From the sequence record NC_019399.1: a DNA stretch of 64,000 bases; one strand, given 5' to 3'. The position numbers and the translations under genes were made by a program. The DNA comes from Escherichia phage vB_EcoM_ACG-C40. Positions within the stretch are counted from its first letter, which is position 1. Each line of letters begins with the position of its first letter. Of this stretch, positions 51,045 to 60,874 are shown in pieces. Under the pieces are notes generated by a model that was not told where the DNA came from, ran no database searches, and saw only the letters and a program-made list of their open reading frames with translations.

Positions 51045-51962
51045 TCAAAATTCATTAATGCTATTAGTTAATTTAGAAAGACCCGCTTTTACAAAATATG
51101 AATAAATTTTGCCACGCGGTGGTAATTTATATGAATTATAGTAATTCACAATGTTTGAAGCAATATTATCAGGAATATAATCAAAATCAATTAGAACTAA
51201 ATTTTCTTTATAACGATTATACTCAGATTCTGAGAGAAGCACCTTAGCTTGCTCACGATCATTAGCAATAGCTTCAACGATTGAAGTTTTCATTGAAGGA
51301 GTCCGTTCACCTTCAACTCTGGTAAACCAAAAGTCAGAACGTACTTTAACTGAAGCAACGTTATCCTTTTTGTCACCCTTAAGAATTTTAGTCATACAAT
51401 CAATTTCAGCAGAACCGCTTTTAATTTTAACCCATTTCTTGTGCATCGGTGACCATTGCTTAACATTTGGATATTTGTGAAGTTGAGTAAAGTCACCGTC
51501 CGATGAAATGATTAAAATCTTATGTCCTTCTAAAGAGAACTTTTTAACAAGAACAGCAATGTGGTCATCTGCTTCATACTTATCAATATCCATAACAATG
51601 TATGGCATATAAGCTTTCAATTCATCTATAACTTTATGACTGGATTCAAAATAACCTTCCCAGTCCCAAGTAGATTCTTCTCGTGCTTTTCCACGGTTTT
51701 TCTTATAATAATAAGCGAAATCACGACGCCAGTATCCAGATTTCGCGTTATCAATACACAGTACAATTTTAGTGTATCCAAGCGTTTTTGCTTTTTTGAC
51801 ATTAAACTTAATTGAGTTCAATATCAAATGACGAACCATTGATAAATTAATTTTTTCTTTATCTGGGAAGTTTACCAGAGCAGTTGAAAGAGCAATTTGA
51901 CTAAAGTCAATAAAGCAAATTCCTTCTTTGTAATCTTCATCCAGCATCATTTCTAAATCCAT
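51045..51962 (-). CDS. rnh: RNase H (5'-3' exonuclease, FEN-1 family)
   Basis: 305 aa from MDLEMMLDEDYKEGIC; the track start at 51977 is a TTG. Confidence 0.9.
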   Translation of the reverse strand: MDLEMMLDEDYKEGICFIDFSQIALSTALVNFPDKEKINLSMVRHLILNSIKFNVKKAKTLGYTKIVLCIDNAKSGYWRRDFAYYYKKNRGKAREESTWDWEGYFESSHKVIDELKAYMPYIVMDIDKYEADDHIAVLVKKFSLEGHKILIISSDGDFTQLHKYPNVKQWSPMHKKWVKIKSGSAEIDCMTKILKGDKKDNVASVKVRSDFWFTRVEGERTPSMKTSIVEAIANDREQAKVLLSESEYNRYKENLVLIDFDYIPDNIASNIVNYYNSYKLPPRGKIYSYFVKAGLSKLTNSINEF

Positions 51963-51991
51963 ATGAACCTCGTTCAATTAGTGAGATTTCT

Positions 51992-52021
51992 ATTATATAC
52001 TATCTAAATCTTAAAGTAAAC
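51992..52021 (-). promoter_or_regulatory. Early promoter for rnh
   Basis: Minus strand GTTTAC, 18-nt spacer, TATAAT; AGATTT/AAATCT inverted repeat around the -10. Confidence 0.6.
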
Positions 52022-52024
52022 AGG

Positions 52025-52032
52025 TATAAATA
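52025..52032 (+). promoter_or_regulatory. Late promoter TATAAATA for gene 34
   Basis: Exact TATAAATA about 35 nt upstream of ATG 52067, abutting the divergent rnh -35. Confidence 0.6.
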
Positions 52033-52066
52033 CTTATTATTGAAAACACAATAGGAGCCCGGGAGA

Positions 52067-55000
52067 ATGGCCGAGATTAAAAGAAAGTTCAGAGCAGAAG
52101 ATGGTCTGGACGCAGGTGGCGATAAAATAATCAACGTAGCTTTAGCTGATCGTACCGTAGGAACTGACGGTGTTAACGTTGATTACTTAATTCAAGAAAA
52201 CACAGTTCAGCAATATGATCCAACTCGTGGATATTTAAAAGATTTTGTAATCATTTATAATAATCGTTTTTGGGCAGCAACGGATAATATTCCAAAACCT
52301 GCTGGAAATTTTAATAGAATTCGTTGGAAAGCATTACGTACTGATGCCGTATATACAACCGTATCATCTGGACCATATCAATTAAAATCCGGAGAAGCAA
52401 TTTCAGTAGATACATCAGTTGGCAATGACATTGAGTTTACTTTACCATCTTCTCCGCTTAATGGAGAAACCGTAATAATTCAAGATATCGGTGGAAAACC
52501 TGGCATAAATCAGGTTAAAATAAATTCTTCAAATCAGAGTATTGTCAATTTTAGAGGTGAACAGGTACGTTCAGTTTTAATGACTCATCCAAAGTCACAG
52601 ATGGTATTCATTTTTAATAATCGTTTGTGGCAAATGTATATTGCTGATTATAGCAGAGAAGCTGCGATTGTTACTCCATCGACTGCGTATCAAGCACAAT
52701 CTAATGATTTTATCGTACGTAGATTTACTTCTGCTGCACCAATTAATGTTAAACTTCCGAGATTTGCTAATCATGGCGATATTATTAATTTCGTTGATTT
52801 AGATAAACTGAATCCACTTTATCATACAATTGTTACTACATACGATGAAACGACTTCAGTACAAGAAGTTGGAACTCATTCCATTGAAGGCCGTACATCG
52901 ATTAACGGTTTCTTGATGTTTGACGATAATGAGAAATTGTGGAGATTGTTTGACGGGGATAGTAAAGCACGTTTACGCATTATAACAACTAATTCAAATA
53001 TTCGTCCAAATGAAGAAGTCATGGTATTTGGCGCGAATAATAGAACAACCCAAACAATTGAACTTCAGCTTCCGACTGATATTTCTGTTGGTGATACTGT
53101 TAAAATTTCCATGAATTACATGAGAAAAGGACAAACAGTTAAAATCAAAGCTGCTGGTGAAGATAAAATTGCTTCTTCAGTTCAATTGCTGCAATTCCCA
53201 AAACGTTCAGAATATCCGCCTGAAGCTGAATGGGTAACAGTTCAAGAATTAGTTTTTAACGGTGAAACTAATTATGTTCCAGTTTTACAACTTGCTTATA
53301 TAGAAGATTCTGATGGAAAATACTGGGTTGTACAGCAAAACGTTCCAACTGTAGAAAGAGTAGACTCTTTAAATGCTTCTACTAGAGCAAGATTAGGCGT
53401 AATTGCTTTAGCTACGCAAGCTCAAGCAAATGCTGATTTAGAAAATTCTCCGCAAAAAGAATTGGCAATTACTCCAGAAACGTTAGCTAATCGTACTGCT
53501 ACAGAAACTCGCAGAGGTATCGCAAGAATAGCAACTACTGCTCAAGTAAATCAGAACACTACATTCTCTTTTGCTGATGACCTTATCATCACTCCTAAAA
53601 AGCTGAATGAAAGAACTGCTACAGAAACTCGCAGAGGTGTTGCTGAAATTGCTACGCAGCAGGAAACTAATACAGGTATCGATGATACTACAATCATCAC
53701 TCCTAAAAAGCTTCAAGCTCGTCAAGGTTCTGAATCATTATCTGGTATTGTAACTTTTGTATCTACCGCAGGAGCTACTCCAGCTTCTAGTCGTGAATTA
53801 AATGGTACGAATGTTTATAATAAAAACACTAATAATTTAGTTGTTTCACCTAAAGCTTTGGATCAGTATAAAGCTACTCCAACGCAACAAGGCGCAGTAA
53901 TTTTAGCAGTTGAAAGTGAAGTAATTGCTGGACAAAGCCAAGAAGGATGGGCAAATGCGGTTGTAACGCCAGAAACGTTACATAAAAAGACATCAACTGA
54001 TGGAAGAATTGGTTTAATTGAAATTGCTACGCAAAGTGAAGTTAATACAGGAACTGACTATACTCGTGCAGTCACTCCTAAAACTTTAAATGACCGTAGA
54101 GCAACTGAAAGTTTAAGTGGTATAGCTGAAATTGCTACGCAAGTTGAATTCGACGCAGGCGTCGACGATACTCGTATCTCTACACCATTAAAAATTAAAA
54201 CCAGATTTAATAGTACTGATCGTACTTCTGTTGTTGCTCTATCTGGATTAGTTGAATCAGGAACTCTCTGGGACCATTATACCCTTAATATTCTTGAAGC
54301 AAATGAGACACAGCGTGGTACACTTCGTGTAGCTACACAAGTTGAAGCTGCTGCAGGAACATTAGATAATGTTTTAATAACTCCTAAAAAGCTTTTAGGT
54401 ACTAAATCTACCGAATCGCAAGAAGGTGTTATTAAAGTTGCAACTCAGTCTGAAACTGTGACTGGAACGTCAGCAAATACTGCTGTATCTCCAAAAAATT
54501 TAAAATGGATTGTGCAGAGTGAACCTACTTGGGCAGCTACTACTGCGATAAGAGGTTTTGTTAAAACTTCATCTGGTTCAATTACATTCGTTGGTAATGA
54601 TACAGTCGGTTCTACACAAGATTTAGAACTGTATGAGAAAAATAGCTATGCAGTATCACCATATGAATTAAACCGTGTATTAGCAAATTATCTGCCGTTA
54701 AAAGCAAAAGCTGTAGATAGTAATTTATTGGATGGTCTAGATTCATCTCAGTTCATTCGTAGGGATATTGCACAGACGGTTAATGGTTCACTAACCTTAA
54801 CCCAACAAACGAATCTGAGTGCCCCTCTTGTATCATCTAGTACTGCTACGTTTGGTGGTTCAGTTTCGGCAAATAGTGTACTAACTATTTCTAATACTGG
54901 AACAGAAACTCATCTGATTTTTGAGAAAGGACCTCAAACTGGAACTAACCAAGCACAGACGGTGACTATTAGAGTGTGGGGTAATCAATTTAGTGGGGAA

Positions 55001-55936
55001 TCAGATACAACACGTTCTACTGTATTTGAAGTTGGTGATGAAACGTCTAATCACTTTTATTCTCAGCGCAATAAAGCTGGAAATATAACATTTAATATCA
55101 ACGGTACAGTAACACCTATAAATGTTAATGCTTCAGGAACATTGAATGCAAATGGTGTAGCAACATTTGGTAATTCAGTCACTGCAACTGGTGAAATTAT
55201 TTCTCGAAGCGCAAATGCTTTCCGTTCTATTAACGGAAATTATGGTTTCATTGTTCGCAATGATGGATCAGTAACGAATTTTATGCTTACTGCATCGGGT
55301 GATCAGACTGGCGGATTTAATGGATTGCGTCCTTTAGCTATTAATAATGCATCTGGCCAAGTAACGATTGGTGAAAGCTTAATCATTGTCAAAGGTGCTA
55401 CTATAACTTCAGGTGGTTTAACTGTTAACTCGAGAATTCGTTCTCAGGGTACTAAAACATCTGACTTATATACCCGTGCGCCAACATCTGATACTGTAGG
55501 ATTCTGGTCAATCGATATTAACGATTCAGCCACTTATAACCAGTTCCCGGGTTATTTTAAAATGGTTGAAAAAACTAATGAAGTGACTGGACTTCCATAC
55601 TTAGAACGTGGCGAAGAAGTTAAATCTCCTGGTACATTGACTCAGTTTGGTAATACACTTGATTCGCTTTACCAAGATTGGATTACTTATCCAACGACCC
55701 CAGAAGCGCGCACCACTCGCTGGACACGTACATGGCAGAAAACCAAAAACTATTGGTCAAGTTTTGTTCAGGTATTTGACGGAGGTAACCCTCCTCAACC
55801 ATCTGACATCGGTGCTTTACCATCTGATAATGCTATAATGGGTAATCTTACTATTCGCGATTTCTTACGAATTGGTAATGTTCGCATTATTCCTGACCCA
55901 GTGAATAAAACTGTTAAATTTGAATGGGTTGAATAA
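52067..55936 (+). CDS. 34: Long tail fibre proximal subunit gp34
   Basis: 1289-aa ORF, T4 length and position. Confidence 0.95.
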   Translation: MAEIKRKFRAEDGLDAGGDKIINVALADRTVGTDGVNVDYLIQENTVQQYDPTRGYLKDFVIIYNNRFWAATDNIPKPAGNFNRIRWKALRTDAVYTTVSSGPYQLKSGEAISVDTSVGNDIEFTLPSSPLNGETVIIQDIGGKPGINQVKINSSNQSIVNFRGEQVRSVLMTHPKSQMVFIFNNRLWQMYIADYSREAAIVTPSTAYQAQSNDFIVRRFTSAAPINVKLPRFANHGDIINFVDLDKLNPLYHTIVTTYDETTSVQEVGTHSIEGRTSINGFLMFDDNEKLWRLFDGDSKARLRIITTNSNIRPNEEVMVFGANNRTTQTIELQLPTDISVGDTVKISMNYMRKGQTVKIKAAGEDKIASSVQLLQFPKRSEYPPEAEWVTVQELVFNGETNYVPVLQLAYIEDSDGKYWVVQQNVPTVERVDSLNASTRARLGVIALATQAQANADLENSPQKELAITPETLANRTATETRRGIARIATTAQVNQNTTFSFADDLIITPKKLNERTATETRRGVAEIATQQETNTGIDDTTIITPKKLQARQGSESLSGIVTFVSTAGATPASSRELNGTNVYNKNTNNLVVSPKALDQYKATPTQQGAVILAVESEVIAGQSQEGWANAVVTPETLHKKTSTDGRIGLIEIATQSEVNTGTDYTRAVTPKTLNDRRATESLSGIAEIATQVEFDAGVDDTRISTPLKIKTRFNSTDRTSVVALSGLVESGTLWDHYTLNILEANETQRGTLRVATQVEAAAGTLDNVLITPKKLLGTKSTESQEGVIKVATQSETVTGTSANTAVSPKNLKWIVQSEPTWAATTAIRGFVKTSSGSITFVGNDTVGSTQDLELYEKNSYAVSPYELNRVLANYLPLKAKAVDSNLLDGLDSSQFIRRDIAQTVNGSLTLTQQTNLSAPLVSSSTATFGGSVSANSVLTISNTGTETHLIFEKGPQTGTNQAQTVTIRVWGNQFSGESDTTRSTVFEVGDETSNHFYSQRNKAGNITFNINGTVTPINVNASGTLNANGVATFGNSVTATGEIISRSANAFRSINGNYGFIVRNDGSVTNFMLTASGDQTGGFNGLRPLAINNASGQVTIGESLIIVKGATITSGGLTVNSRIRSQGTKTSDLYTRAPTSDTVGFWSIDINDSATYNQFPGYFKMVEKTNEVTGLPYLERGEEVKSPGTLTQFGNTLDSLYQDWITYPTTPEARTTRWTRTWQKTKNYWSSFVQVFDGGNPPQPSDIGALPSDNAIMGNLTIRDFLRIGNVRIIPDPVNKTVKFEWVE
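53384..54500 (+). repeat. In-frame tandem protein repeats inside gene 34
   Basis: About 7 units of a roughly 40-aa motif (e.g. TATETRRGIARIATTAQVN...TPKKL / TATETRRGVAEIATQQETNTG...TPKKL). Confidence 0.6.
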
Positions 55937-55944
55937 GAGGTATT

Positions 55945-57060
55945 ATGGAAAAATTTATGGCAGAGTTTGGACAAGGATATGTCCAAACGCCATTTTTATC
56001 GGAAAGTAATTCAGTAAGATACAAAATAAGTATAGCGGGTTCTTGCCCGCTTTCTACTGCAGGACCATACGTTAAATTTCAGGATAATCCTGTAGGAAGT
56101 CAAACATTTAGCGCAGGCCTTCATTTAAGAGTTTTTGACCCTTCTACGGGAGCATTAGTTGATAGTAAGTCATATGCTTTTTCTGCTTCAAACAATACAA
56201 CATCTGCCGCTTTTGTCAGTTTCATGAATTCTTTGTCAAACAATAGACTTGTTGCTATATTAACTAGCGGAAAGGTTAATTTTCCTCCTGAAGTGGTATC
56301 TTGGTTAAGGGGAGCAGGAACTTCAGTTTTTCCATCAGATTCAGTATTGTCAAGATTTGACGTGTCATATGCTGCTTTTTATACTTCTTCTAAAAGAGCT
56401 ATTGCATTAGAGCATGTTAAACTAAGTAATAGAAAAAGCACAGATGATTATCAAACTATTTTAGATGTTGTATTTGATAGTTTAGAAGACGTCGGAGCTA
56501 CAGGATTTCCTAAAAGAACATACGAAAGCGTTGAGCAATTTATGTCTGCGGTTGGAGGAACTAATAATGAAATTGCGCGATTGCCAACTTCAGCTGCTAT
56601 AAGTAAACTTTCTGACTATAATTTAATTCCTGGTGATGTTCTTTATCTTAAAGCACAACTATATGCTGATGCTGATTTACTTGATCTTGGAACTACAAAT
56701 ATATCTATTCGTTTTTATGATGCATCAAATGGATATATTTCCTCGACCCAAGCTGAGTTTACTGGGCAAGCTGGGTCTTGGGAATTAAAAGAAGATTATG
56801 TAGTTGTTCCTGAAAATGCAGTAGGATTTACGATATATGCACAAAGAACTGCTCAAGCAGGTCAAGGCGGCATGAGAAATTTAAGTTTTTCTGAAGTATC
56901 AAGAAATGGCGGCATTTCAAAACCTGCCGAATTTGGCGTCAACGGTATTCGCGTTAATTATGTCTGTGAATCGGCTTCACCTCCAGATATAATGGTACTT
57001 CCTACACAAGCCTCTTCTAAAACTGGCAAAGTGTTTGGACAGGAATTTAGAGAAGTTTAA
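55945..57060 (+). CDS. 35: Long tail fibre hinge protein gp35
   Basis: 371-aa ORF, T4 position. Confidence 0.9.
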   Translation: MEKFMAEFGQGYVQTPFLSESNSVRYKISIAGSCPLSTAGPYVKFQDNPVGSQTFSAGLHLRVFDPSTGALVDSKSYAFSASNNTTSAAFVSFMNSLSNNRLVAILTSGKVNFPPEVVSWLRGAGTSVFPSDSVLSRFDVSYAAFYTSSKRAIALEHVKLSNRKSTDDYQTILDVVFDSLEDVGATGFPKRTYESVEQFMSAVGGTNNEIARLPTSAAISKLSDYNLIPGDVLYLKAQLYADADLLDLGTTNISIRFYDASNGYISSTQAEFTGQAGSWELKEDYVVVPENAVGFTIYAQRTAQAGQGGMRNLSFSEVSRNGGISKPAEFGVNGIRVNYVCESASPPDIMVLPTQASSKTGKVFGQEFREV

Positions 57061-57065
57061 ACTGA

Positions 57066-57092
57066 GGGAGCCTTCGGGTTCCCTTTTTCTTT
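57066..57092 (+). terminator. Rho-independent terminator after gene 35
   Basis: GGGAGCC-TTCG-GGTTCCC followed by TTTTTCTTTAT. Confidence 0.7.
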
Positions 57093-57099
57093 ATAAATA
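57092..57099 (+). promoter_or_regulatory. Late promoter TATAAATA for gene 36
   Basis: Exact TATAAATA about 24 nt upstream of ATG 57123. Confidence 0.55.
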
Positions 57100-57122
57100 A
57101 TATTAAAATAAAGGGGCATATA

Positions 57123-57773
57123 ATGGCTGATTTAAAAGTAGGTTCAACTGTGGGTGGATCTGTCATTTGGCATCAAGGAAATTTTCCATTGAATTCAGCC
57201 GGTGACGATGTACTCTACAAATCATTTAAAATATATTCAGAATATAATAAACCGCAGGCAGCTGATAACGATTTCGTTTCTAAAGCTAATGGTGGTACTT
57301 ACGCCGGTCCAATTACTATTAATTACGGGGTAAATAGTTATCTTCAATTAAGTAATAATGAAACCCCTATCCGAATTCGTTCTGGTGGCGGCACTGGTAA
57401 TACTCTTGTAGTTGGTGGCTCTTCTGGCGGTATTAGTTTTAGACCAGCAGGTAGTGAAATCACTACTGGACAAATTACTATTACGCCAGAAGGTTTGACA
57501 ACATTTACCAAAGCTGTAACGGCTCCATCTGTAACTGTTACATCTACTCCTTCCGCAGCATCTGATGTTACTCGTAAAGATTATGTTGATGGAGCAATAA
57601 ATACTGTTACAGCAAATGCAAACTCTAGGGTATTACGCTCTGGAGACACTATGACAGGAAATTTAACTGCGCCAAACCTTTTTTCACAGAATCCTGCATC
57701 TCAACCTTCACACGTTCCACGATTTGACCAAATCGTAATTAAGGATTCTGTTCAAGATTTCGGCTATTATTAA
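57123..57773 (+). CDS. 36: Long tail fibre distal connector gp36
   Basis: 216-aa ORF, T4 position. Confidence 0.9.
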
Positions 57774-57781
57774 GAGGACTT

Positions 57782-60700
57782 ATGGCTACTTTAAAACAAA
57801 TACAATTTAAAAGAAGCAAAACTGCAGGTCAACGTCCTGCTGCTTCAGTATTAGCCGAAGGTGAATTGGCTATAAACTTAAAAGATAAAACAATTTTCAC
57901 AAAAGATGACTCAGGTAGTGTTATAGAATTAGGTTTAAAATATGGAGGAACTATAAATGGGTCTTTAGAGGTTACAGAAAATATAACTGGAACTTTAATT
58001 GGAAATTCTAGCACAGCTACTAAATTGCAAACACCTAGGAAAATTAATGGTATATCTTTTGATGGGTCAAAGGACATTACCTTAACTCCATCTGACATAA
58101 ATGTCAATAGCACAACATTTATAAAAAATAATGGCGAATTACCTACTGATGCTAATTTAGATACGTATGGGCCCATTGAAGAATATCTTGGTGTTTGGTC
58201 GAAATCTACTTCAACAAATGCGCAACCAGCAAATAAATTCCCAGAAGAAAATGCCGTAGGTGTACTAGAAGTATTTGTGGCCGGCCAATTTGCTGGCACT
58301 CAGCGTTATACTGTAAGATCTGGTAACGTCTATATTCGTTCCTTATCTGCTAAATGGAATGGCGTCGATGGTCCATGGGGTGTGTGGCGTAATGTTCAAG
58401 CGTCAACTCGTCCACTTTCACAAACGATTGACCTTGATAGCTTGGGAGAATTAGAACATTGTGGCTTATGGAGAAACAGTTCAAGCGCAATCGCATCATT
58501 TGATCGCCATTATCCAGAAGAAGGATCAGCCGCACAAGGATTTTTAGAAATATTTGAAGGTGGTTTATACACAAGAACGCAGCGTTATACTACCCGCATG
58601 GGTATGGTTTATACTCGTTGTCTCGCTGCTGCATGGGATGCTAGTGCACCTAAGTGGGAGGAATGGAAGCAGGTTGGTCATGGCACACCAGCGACTTTCT
58701 ATGATGGAGATCTGAATGATTTTAAAACTCCTGGGTTATATAACATTTTAGGCACTGATGCCGTTATTAACTGTCCTACTGGTGAAGGTTTACCAGCCGT
58801 TATTGTTGGTTTGCTGGAAGTTAAACAGCGTGCTTCTGGTGGTGCTATTTTCCAAAAATTTACTACTGCCGGAACGGGTGCAACTACTCGCGATCGTATT
58901 TTTGAGCGTGCATATACTGGTGGTGCGTGGGGTGCATGGAACGAAGTATATACATCTTATTCTCTTCCAATTACTTTGGGTATGGGTGGTATTAAAGCTC
59001 AATTAGCGGAGTTAGATTGGCAAACCTTTGATTTTGTTCCTGGTAGTATGTTTAGCGTTCCTTTGAACAAAATAAAGAACATGCCAGCAAATATGGATTG
59101 GGGGACGATTGACGGAAACCTGGTTATGTTTTCCGTTGGTCCTAGTGAACACACTAGCACAGGGCGTACTGTTCAGGTTTGGCGCGGTACTGTATCCCAG
59201 ACAAACTACCGTTATTTTGTCGTTCGTGTGTTCGGTAATTCTGGAAATAGAACTTGCACAGTCCGCCGTGTTGTTCTTGAAGATGGTCGCCACACATGGA
59301 CAGATCAACAAGATTTTAATGGTGCTGTTAACTTCGGTGCTCCTACCAATTTTAACTCTACTGTTAACCTTAATAACACTACCACATTTAAAACAGAAGT
59401 TAAATTCCGCTCATCTAATGCATTCCGTATGTATAGCGGAAAATTTGGTACAATTTTCCGTAATGATGGAGAGAGTCTTTATATTCTTTCCACCGACGAA
59501 AATGATCAAGATGGAAACTTTAATACAAATAGACCTTTCCGTTATGAATTAAGAACTGGTGATGTTACTTTGGGTGGTACTAGTGGTGCTAACGTTTTAA
59601 AATTAAAACGCGATTCTCTCACCGCATTTTTTGGTGGTGATATTAATATAAAAGGCTTGATGACTTTTGATGCCGGACGTTTAGGATCACGAGATTATTT
59701 TAAATTTAACCATTGGGGTGATAGTAATAATGCGCGCGATAACATTATTCAGTTAGAAGACAGCAAAGGCGTTCATTTTTCCACTGAACGTACTTTAGCG
59801 ACTGGTGCAATTAAAACTCGTTTCTTTGGCGAAACATTCACTGATGGTACATTATACCTAAATCAGATGAATAATAGCTCTGAACGATTCCATATCAATA
59901 ATTGGGGAAATTCAGAAGTTGGTCGCGCGGCAGTGATGGAAATCGGTGATTCCAAAGGTTATCACTTCTATACTGAACGCAGGACAGATAACAGTTTGGC
60001 GTTTGATGTTGCTGGCGCTTTTACTGTGCATGGACCTAACGGAATAACCATCAAAAACTCAGCGGGTGCACGCCATATCTGGTTTAAAGATGATAGCGAT
60101 ACAGAAAAGGCTGTTATTTGGGCGACCGATGATGGCATGTTACATATACGAAATAATAACGAGGGTTCATTTAGTCATCACTTCCAGGGCGCAATGATTA
60201 GACTGGAAGGGCGTGTTCCTTATGGTGCAGCAAAGGGGCTTCTCCGTGGTGAAGTTGATGGTGGTGCATATGTTGCATGGAGAGACCGCCCTGCTGGTTT
60301 GTTGGTTGACTGCCAGAAAAGTATTGACAGTGCTCATGCTGTTTGGAAAGCGGTTGATTGGGGGCGTCAATATATCGCTGCGATGGACGTTCATTGTCCG
60401 GGTGATGGTAATAATACCGCAGCCGCTGTTCTTCATGTTCAGGCTGCTGATTATCAATTCCACGCAAGCGGAGAATTTCATGCCACTGGTAACGGAAACT
60501 TTAACGATGTGTATATTCGTTCTGATCGTCGTCTTAAAGACAATATAGAAGATTATACCGGAAATGCGTTAAGTTTGATTGGTAAGCTGAAAGTGAAAAC
60601 TTACGATAAAGTTAAATCTCTTAAGGACCGTGAAATTATCGGTCATGAGATTGGCATTATCGCACAGGATTTACAAGAAATATTACCGGAAGCTGTGAAA

Positions 60701-60874
60701 TCTTCAAAAGTTGGCAATCTTGATAATCCAGACGATGTTCTGACAATTTCTAACTCGGCAGTGAATGCTCTTTTAATTAAGGCTATTCAGGAAATGAGTG
60801 AAGAAATTAAAGAATTGAAAACTCCTTTCTTTACTAAAATTGCTCGCAAAATTAGTAAATATTTTAAATTCTAA
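57782..60874 (+). CDS. 37: Long tail fibre distal subunit gp37 with C-terminal intramolecular chaperone domain
   Basis: 1030-aa ORF; C-terminal ...[26 protein letters not shown]...[15 protein letters not shown]... resembles the endosialidase-type autoproteolytic chaperone (S-D-x-R-x-K-x-N-I). Confidence 0.9.

Follow-up and report, generated by a model that had tools for sequence, protein, structure and literature searches.

Ten serial units in the quasi-repeat region of the proximal long-tail-fibre protein gp34 of Escherichia phage vB_EcoM_ACG-C40

Introduction

The proximal subunit of the long tail fibres of phage T4, gp34, is a parallel homotrimer that is attached to gp9 of the baseplate and whose folding is aided by gp57A (PMC3004832). 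In work to which Leiman et al. (2010; PMC3004832) refer, this protein is described as having 'seven quasi-repeats, residues 438-797', and a rod of ~400 Å in the proximal half-fibre correlates with this repeat cluster at residues 438-797 (PMC3004832). Granell et al. (2017; PMC5537660; PDB 5NXH and 5NXF) added to the set of repeats and established its structure, solving the fold for T4 gp34 residues 744-877. The three units in the crystal structure are trimeric mixed alpha/beta fibrous domains and are resolved in 5NXH at residues 744-776 (the first unit resolved, unit 8 in the numbering used below), 780-812 (unit 9) and 822/823-868 (unit 10); an additional repeat was placed at residues 552-598 by structure-based alignment (PMC5537660). 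Each unit consists of a tight turn, a beta-strand that starts at a conserved Gly with a 90 degree turn, a short helix and a variable loop, after which Ser/Thr-Pro caps the central helix of a three-helix bundle on the three-fold axis (PMC5537660).

The same sequence unit occurs in the short tail fibre protein gp12 of T4 (PDB 5IV5, 5LYE and 9F4B; PF09089), and the gp34 units superimpose on the gp12 repeat at residues 182-215 (PMC5537660). gp12 differs from gp34 in that it has fewer units (six according to PMC3004832, and 2-4 stretches detectable in the present analysis) and belongs to a different fibre with a receptor-binding C-terminus of its own. Serial modules in a surface-exposed virion protein are likewise found in the BACON-domain repeats of crAss-like phages (PMC6949934). 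Unlike variable-number repeats, of which the BACON repeats are an example (PMC6949934), the units of gp34 have a fixed copy number, are old and diverged in their DNA, and bear no sign of recent duplication.

Here we analyse the repeats of gp34 in Escherichia phage vB_EcoM_ACG-C40, using a stretch of 64,000 nucleotides (accession number NC_019399.1), which in its entirety is referred to as the window, and starting from a preliminary description of this DNA. We interpret the array as the known quasi-repeat region of T4-like gp34, a series of trimeric rod domains with an old and fixed architecture, and assign to this reading a probability of about 0.93. The array carries little weight as a discovery, since for T4 the repeats themselves, the fold that they adopt and their function as modules of the rod have already been published; what is useful is a register-based map of ten units (7 + spacer + 3) and a check across the family, in which the number of units is fixed and the loops vary.

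Identity of the gene

The repeats are encoded by gene 34 (52067..55936, plus strand; 1289 aa plus stop), the gene for the long-tail-fibre proximal subunit gp34; the phage is T4-like (a Tequatrovirus). At the DNA level, the gene shares 97% identity with genes annotated as 'long-tail fiber proximal subunit' in many Tequatrovirus phages, with the best match in Escherichia phage 232Ecol030PP (97%). The protein was aligned by phmmer with T4 gp34 chain 9x3r_M over residues 1-1289 and with the T4 crystal chain 5nxh_A over residues 726-1289 (E=0 in both cases), and phrog_972 ('tail fiber protein proximal subunit') matches residues 1-1289 in the PHROGs database. The C-terminus contains the Pfam domains Gp34_trimer (PF21446; 110.1 bits) and Gp34_2nd (PF21560; 127 bits), each with a cutoff of 27. 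A literature search for PDB code 9X3R found nothing relevant, and in a 2026 preprint on T4 the protein is modelled and the repeats are unmentioned.

The neighbouring open reading frames are rnh (51045-51977, minus strand), 35 (55945-57060), 36 (57123-57773) and 37 (57782-60874). The gene order rnh (upstream, on the opposite strand)/34/35/36/37/38 is that of T4 and is the same in the closest relative (accession number PP355090.1), and the order around gene 34 is also shared by six distant phages. On the opposite strand, no open reading frame of at least 100 aa was found across the repeat region. The matches of DNA, protein and domains and the conserved synteny, with T4 homology extending over the full length of the protein, therefore bear out the identification of the gene as gp34 in the preliminary description. 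Given its near-identity to the T4 protein, gp34 of this phage is probably also a parallel homotrimer that is bound to gp9 of the baseplate and folds with the assistance of gp57A.

Unit map of the array

Counting by register on the conserved Gly and Ser/Thr-Pro gave an array at 53378..54676 (plus strand; aa 438-870) that comprises ten units of 36-49 aa plus one spacer. Eight units are canonical and two (units 4 and 10) have long loop insertions. Units 1-7 are contiguous (aa 438-714) and are followed by a spacer of 30 residues and by units 8-10 (aa 745-870). All units are on the plus strand. Unit 1 (53378..53497; aa 438-477, 40 aa; HMM iE 7.7e-13) was not among the seeds of the initial profile, and is followed by unit 2 (53498..53617; aa 478-517, 40 aa; iE 1.1e-17), unit 3 (53618..53725; aa 518-553, 36 aa; iE 6.1e-18) and the degenerate unit 4 (53726..53872; aa 554-602, 49 aa), which has a long loop insertion but keeps Gly and Ser-Pro in register. 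Unit 5 (53873..53992; aa 603-642, 40 aa; iE 9.7e-14), also a non-seed unit, precedes unit 6 (53993..54100; aa 643-678, 36 aa; iE 5.6e-18) and unit 7 (54101..54208; aa 679-714, 36 aa; iE 2.2e-16). The non-repeat spacer between units 7 and 8 (54209..54298, plus strand; aa 715-744, 30 aa) has no HMM match. It is followed by unit 8 (54299..54406; aa 745-780, 36 aa; iE 1.7e-14), unit 9 (54407..54514; aa 781-816, 36 aa; iE 2.2e-16) and unit 10 (54536..54676; aa 824-870, 47 aa), which has a long beta-hairpin insertion and again keeps Gly and Ser-Pro in register.

The initial HMM was built from six obvious units and recovered the non-seed stretches aa 438-477 (iE 4e-7) and 603-642 (iE 6e-4) and the C-terminal half of aa 554-602 (iE 0.04). 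When iterated over 120 homologues, it found eight gp34 units at iE values of about 1e-13 to 1e-18; in unit 4, the C-terminal half alone was scored, and weakly. Units 4 and 10 were placed by the Gly/Ser-Pro register and from the literature because they are too degenerate for the HMM alone. Units 4, 8, 9 and 10 coincide with the units of Granell et al.

The consensus of the unit is ATExxxGxxxxATQxE...[loop]...[ST]PKxL, with VTPKxLxxR as a fuller form of the C-terminal part. G7 and P33 are invariant in 10/10 units, every unit has Ser or Thr immediately before the invariant Pro, and at least 90% of the units have L36. The order Gly, variable loop and then Ser/Thr-Pro is the signature of the fibrous repeat of gp34 and gp12, and both motifs singled out in the preliminary description, TATETRRGxAxIAT and TPKKL, are present in the protein. 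Compared with T4 gp34, in which protein, residue numbering, consensus and the insertion-bearing units (552-598 and 822-868) are the same, there is no material difference apart from the count, which is ten by register here versus seven in the older publication.

The same comparison applies to the original estimate of 'seven or so' units, which agrees with the older published count and falls short of the ten counted by register. The tandem arrangement of 40-residue units assumed at that stage describes the array approximately, as the units measure 36-49 aa and their run is broken by the spacer at aa 715-744. The range proposed for the array, 53384-54500, takes in units 1-8 and most of unit 9; since the array spans 53378-54676, it runs beyond this end, so that unit 9 had been cut and unit 10 missed.

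A profile of the ten units matched 10 stretches in full-length T4 gp34, a count that is partly circular because the profile was built from the near-identical protein of the window; independent matches are limited to the crystal fragment (5nxh_A, 726-1289), with 3 stretches, and the gp12 chains, with 2-4 stretches. The gp12 chains 5iv5_O, 9f4b_FG and 5lye_A were matched by the array at E values of 1e-10 to 1e-14 and by the unit profile at 1e-15 to 1e-23. In a six-frame scan of the whole 64-kb window with the unit HMM, the repeat was found in no open reading frame besides gp34. Pfam has no dedicated model for the gp34 repeat: a scan of full-length gp34 left aa 438-870 without any family, the repeat region submitted alone gave a sole match to PF09089 (gp12-short_mid; 27.9 bits, cutoff 25), and no generic 'phage tail fibre repeat' family was returned for gp34 in these scans.

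Unit number among relatives

A search of a collection of 5.8 billion proteins yielded 120 listed cluster representatives that stand for ~1,880 member sequences, down to 45% identity. Eight canonical HMM matches with a span of ~376 aa were found in all listed representatives except one (P0043). In the alignment of 126 sequences, the array is 429-453 aa long in 123, and all insertions and deletions other than that of P0043 are at variable-loop positions or in the spacer. When the array was compared by tblastn with 50,697 phage records, 1499 records matched, and in 1461 of these at least 80% of the query was covered in one place. In a spread sample of 60 of these matches, the match extends over exactly 1353 nt in near relatives (at least 83% identity) and over 1329-1404 nt in other genera, with longer matches of 1479-1545 nt in phages of Vibrio.

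Six distant gp34s (two from Vibrio Schizotequatrovirus, two from Aeromonas phages, one from an Acinetobacter Lazarusvirus and one from an E. coli Dhakavirus) were read directly. The layout of 7 + spacer + 3 is kept in 6/6, with the insertion-bearing units at the same positions and a spacer of 31-39 aa at the same place in each. The Vibrio proteins owe their added length to longer loops, among them one with a large insertion in unit 1. Units of the window protein matched best to the unit of the same number in eight of ten cases both for Aeromonas phage Aes012 and for Acinetobacter phage AB-Navy1, the exceptions being near ties, and judged by these comparisons the units are mostly positional orthologues that have not been homogenised. 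No gain or loss of a whole unit was found in the 120 listed representatives or the six distant gp34s. A comparison of repeat number among T4-like phages, which had been proposed as a check on the array, thus gives a number that is fixed at ten and does not vary among these sequences. The conserved 7 + 3 layout, the positional orthology and the restriction of length changes to loops therefore indicate that the array was assembled before the family diverged and has had ten units since.

The exceptional representative is a gp34 of 1260 aa from a JGI metagenome (contig of 6.2 kb) in which 31 residues are deleted inside unit 5 (equivalent to aa ~609-639, nt ~53891-53983 of the window). The deletion may be genuine or may have arisen in assembly, and was not counted as a contraction of the array, as it is not unit-precise and occurs on a single metagenomic contig of this length.

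The gp34 orthologue of Vibrio phage PVA23 (accession number ON190025.1; 1645-5352) occupies the position of gene 34, where it adjoins the RNase H gene, and has the full ten-unit array, but is annotated as 'short tail fiber protein'. This label is probably an error that goes back to the repeats which gp34 has in common with gp12.

Structure and role of the units

Between aa 438 and 870, about 8 of the 433 residues differ from T4 gp34 in the phmmer alignment, of which about 2 are within T4 residues 744-877. With so few differences across the array, the published structure therefore applies directly. The preliminary description had taken the repeats to be modules of the fibre shaft, a view that gains support from this near-identity, from the match of the repeat cluster to the rod (PMC3004832) and from the solved fold (PMC5537660). 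Units 1-7 probably share the fold of units 8-10, to judge from the sequence register and the published alignment.

In the trimer, the three gp34 chains would run parallel, and the three copies of each unit would pack around the three-fold axis, with the central helices forming a three-helix bundle and each trio of units forming a single small fibrous domain of mixed alpha/beta type. A series of ten of these domains (7 + 30-residue spacer + 3) would make up much of the stiff rod of the fibre 'thigh', flanked by the N-terminal domain that binds the baseplate and by the beta-helix and prism domains of the C-terminus. The array most likely arose by duplication before the Straboviridae diverged, after which the units evolved as positional orthologues with variation in length restricted to surface loops. 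For the engineering of fibre length or the choice of splice points in chimeric fibres, the unit boundaries are natural module borders, seemingly unexploited by nature.

Units 4 and 10 may have another function, in which their long loops dock the retracted fibre on the tail sheath and the 7 + 3 layout serves to space the contacts. Density that connects fibre and sheath was seen at the insertion at residues 836-857, and the same was suggested for the insertion in residues 552-598 (PMC5537660); moreover, units 4 and 10 keep their positions in distant phages, and a fixed number of units fits a geometric constraint. Against this, the sheath contact is a published suggestion from density of low resolution; in addition, insertions and deletions within the array are most frequent in these insertion loops, and this speaks against an interface that is tightly conserved. 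We consider docking a possible but doubtful explanation of the layout.

DNA similarity between units

The reading as an old series of rod domains also agrees with the DNA of the units, which are 26-61% identical over 102 core nucleotides. Tandem Repeats Finder (52000-57500, minimum score 30) reported 0 DNA tandem repeats, and seed-and-extend repeat finding gave just short families whose similarity (60-90% identity) stems from the common protein motif. The repetition in gp34 thus exists at the protein level only, and the DNA of the units is a poor substrate for slippage or homologous exchange. The longest exact word common to units is 24 nt (ACTGCTACAGAAACTCGCAGAGGT), and occurs on the plus strand at the start of unit 2 (53495..53518) and, 120 nt (40 codons) further downstream, at that of unit 3 (53615..53638); the next longest is ~21 nt (53585 and 53693, 108 nt apart).

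Units 2 and 3 encode TATETRRG by eight identical codons, including the CGC-AGA pair for arginine, and the 24-nt word is present at both positions in the closest relative (PP355090.1) as well. Aeromonas phage Aes012 and Dhakavirus FB have TATETRRG in both units with synonymous differences between the units, and the 24-nt repeat could therefore mark a conversion tract. The identity may reflect such a short tract or chance. That it represents a short gene-conversion tract of Tequatrovirus, or a low-frequency route to a unit-precise deletion of 40 residues, is in our estimate improbable; if the deletion route were real, it would lead to a proximal half-fibre that is shorter but functional.

Less probable still is a dynamic tandem repeat, in which whole units are gained or lost in frame by recombination or slippage and the length of the fibre changes. 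The suggestion in the preliminary description that the array could expand or contract in frame amounts to this, and is not supported, given the low DNA identity of the units and their constant number among relatives. Two exact direct repeats (24 nt and ~21 nt) that lie in register one unit apart could mediate a rare unit-precise deletion, and the metagenomic protein that lacks 31 residues of unit 5 suggests that some contraction may be tolerated. These points are opposed by the null result of Tandem Repeats Finder and the core DNA identity of 26-61%, by the absence of whole-unit changes from the 120 listed representatives and the six distant family members, by the uniform match of 1353 nt in all near relatives (at least 83% identity) of the tblastn spread sample, and by the positional orthology of the units; the metagenomic deletion itself is not unit-precise and is found on one short contig. 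Variable-number tandem repeats are recognised by a DNA identity between neighbouring units that is high enough for slippage or homologous recombination and by copy-number variation among close relatives, and neither was found here. As a natural source of variation, the dynamic repeat is largely refuted, which leaves the fixed series of old rod domains as the preferred reading.

Protein-level periodicity

A self dot-plot of gp34 (BLOSUM62, windows of 15 residues, score of at least 30) gave 372 off-diagonal matches, compared with 6.9 +/- 4.3 (maximum 17) in 20 composition-preserving shuffles. The matches cluster at aa ~440-820, which is the range originally described, and the periodicity expected of a repeat array in gp34 is therefore present. 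That the periodicity is merely a compositional artefact of a fibre protein rich in Thr, Ala and Gly, for which nothing speaks except the general composition bias of fibre proteins, can be dismissed with near certainty and was rejected in view of the shuffle test, the recovery of non-seed units by the HMM, the invariant Gly and Pro columns, and the presence of the same unit in the gp12 structures, which the ten-unit profile matches.

Other regions of the fibre genes

The N-terminal part of gp34 contains a weak recurring motif, with the variants VIIYNNRFW (52247-52273; aa 61-69), VFIFNNRLW (52604-52630; aa 180-188) and FDDNEKLW (within ~52913-52966; aa 283-300). Local alignments of these regions are marginal by sequence when compared with shuffles (z 2.8-4.0), and the motif may reflect repeated small domains in the baseplate-proximal part of the protein. 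In the C-terminal triple beta-helix, aa 900-1000 and 1000-1100 (nt ~54767-55366) are weakly similar to each other (local score 57, z = 3.5), which agrees with the account by Granell et al. of a beta-helix that is repetitive but poor in motifs (PMC5537660).

In gp37, aa 68-89 (57983-58048) gave a partial match, to the C-terminal half of the unit, that was not significant (iE 0.67, single-sequence search), and a single repeat near gp37 residues 88-104 is described in the literature. gp37 has 1030 aa in this phage (57782-60874) versus 994 aa in the closest relative (PP355090.1; 11217-14201), whose gp37 is annotated as AR1 gp37-like and whose gp38 is annotated as S16-like. The distal, receptor-binding half-fibre therefore appears to be mosaic compared with the conserved proximal half.
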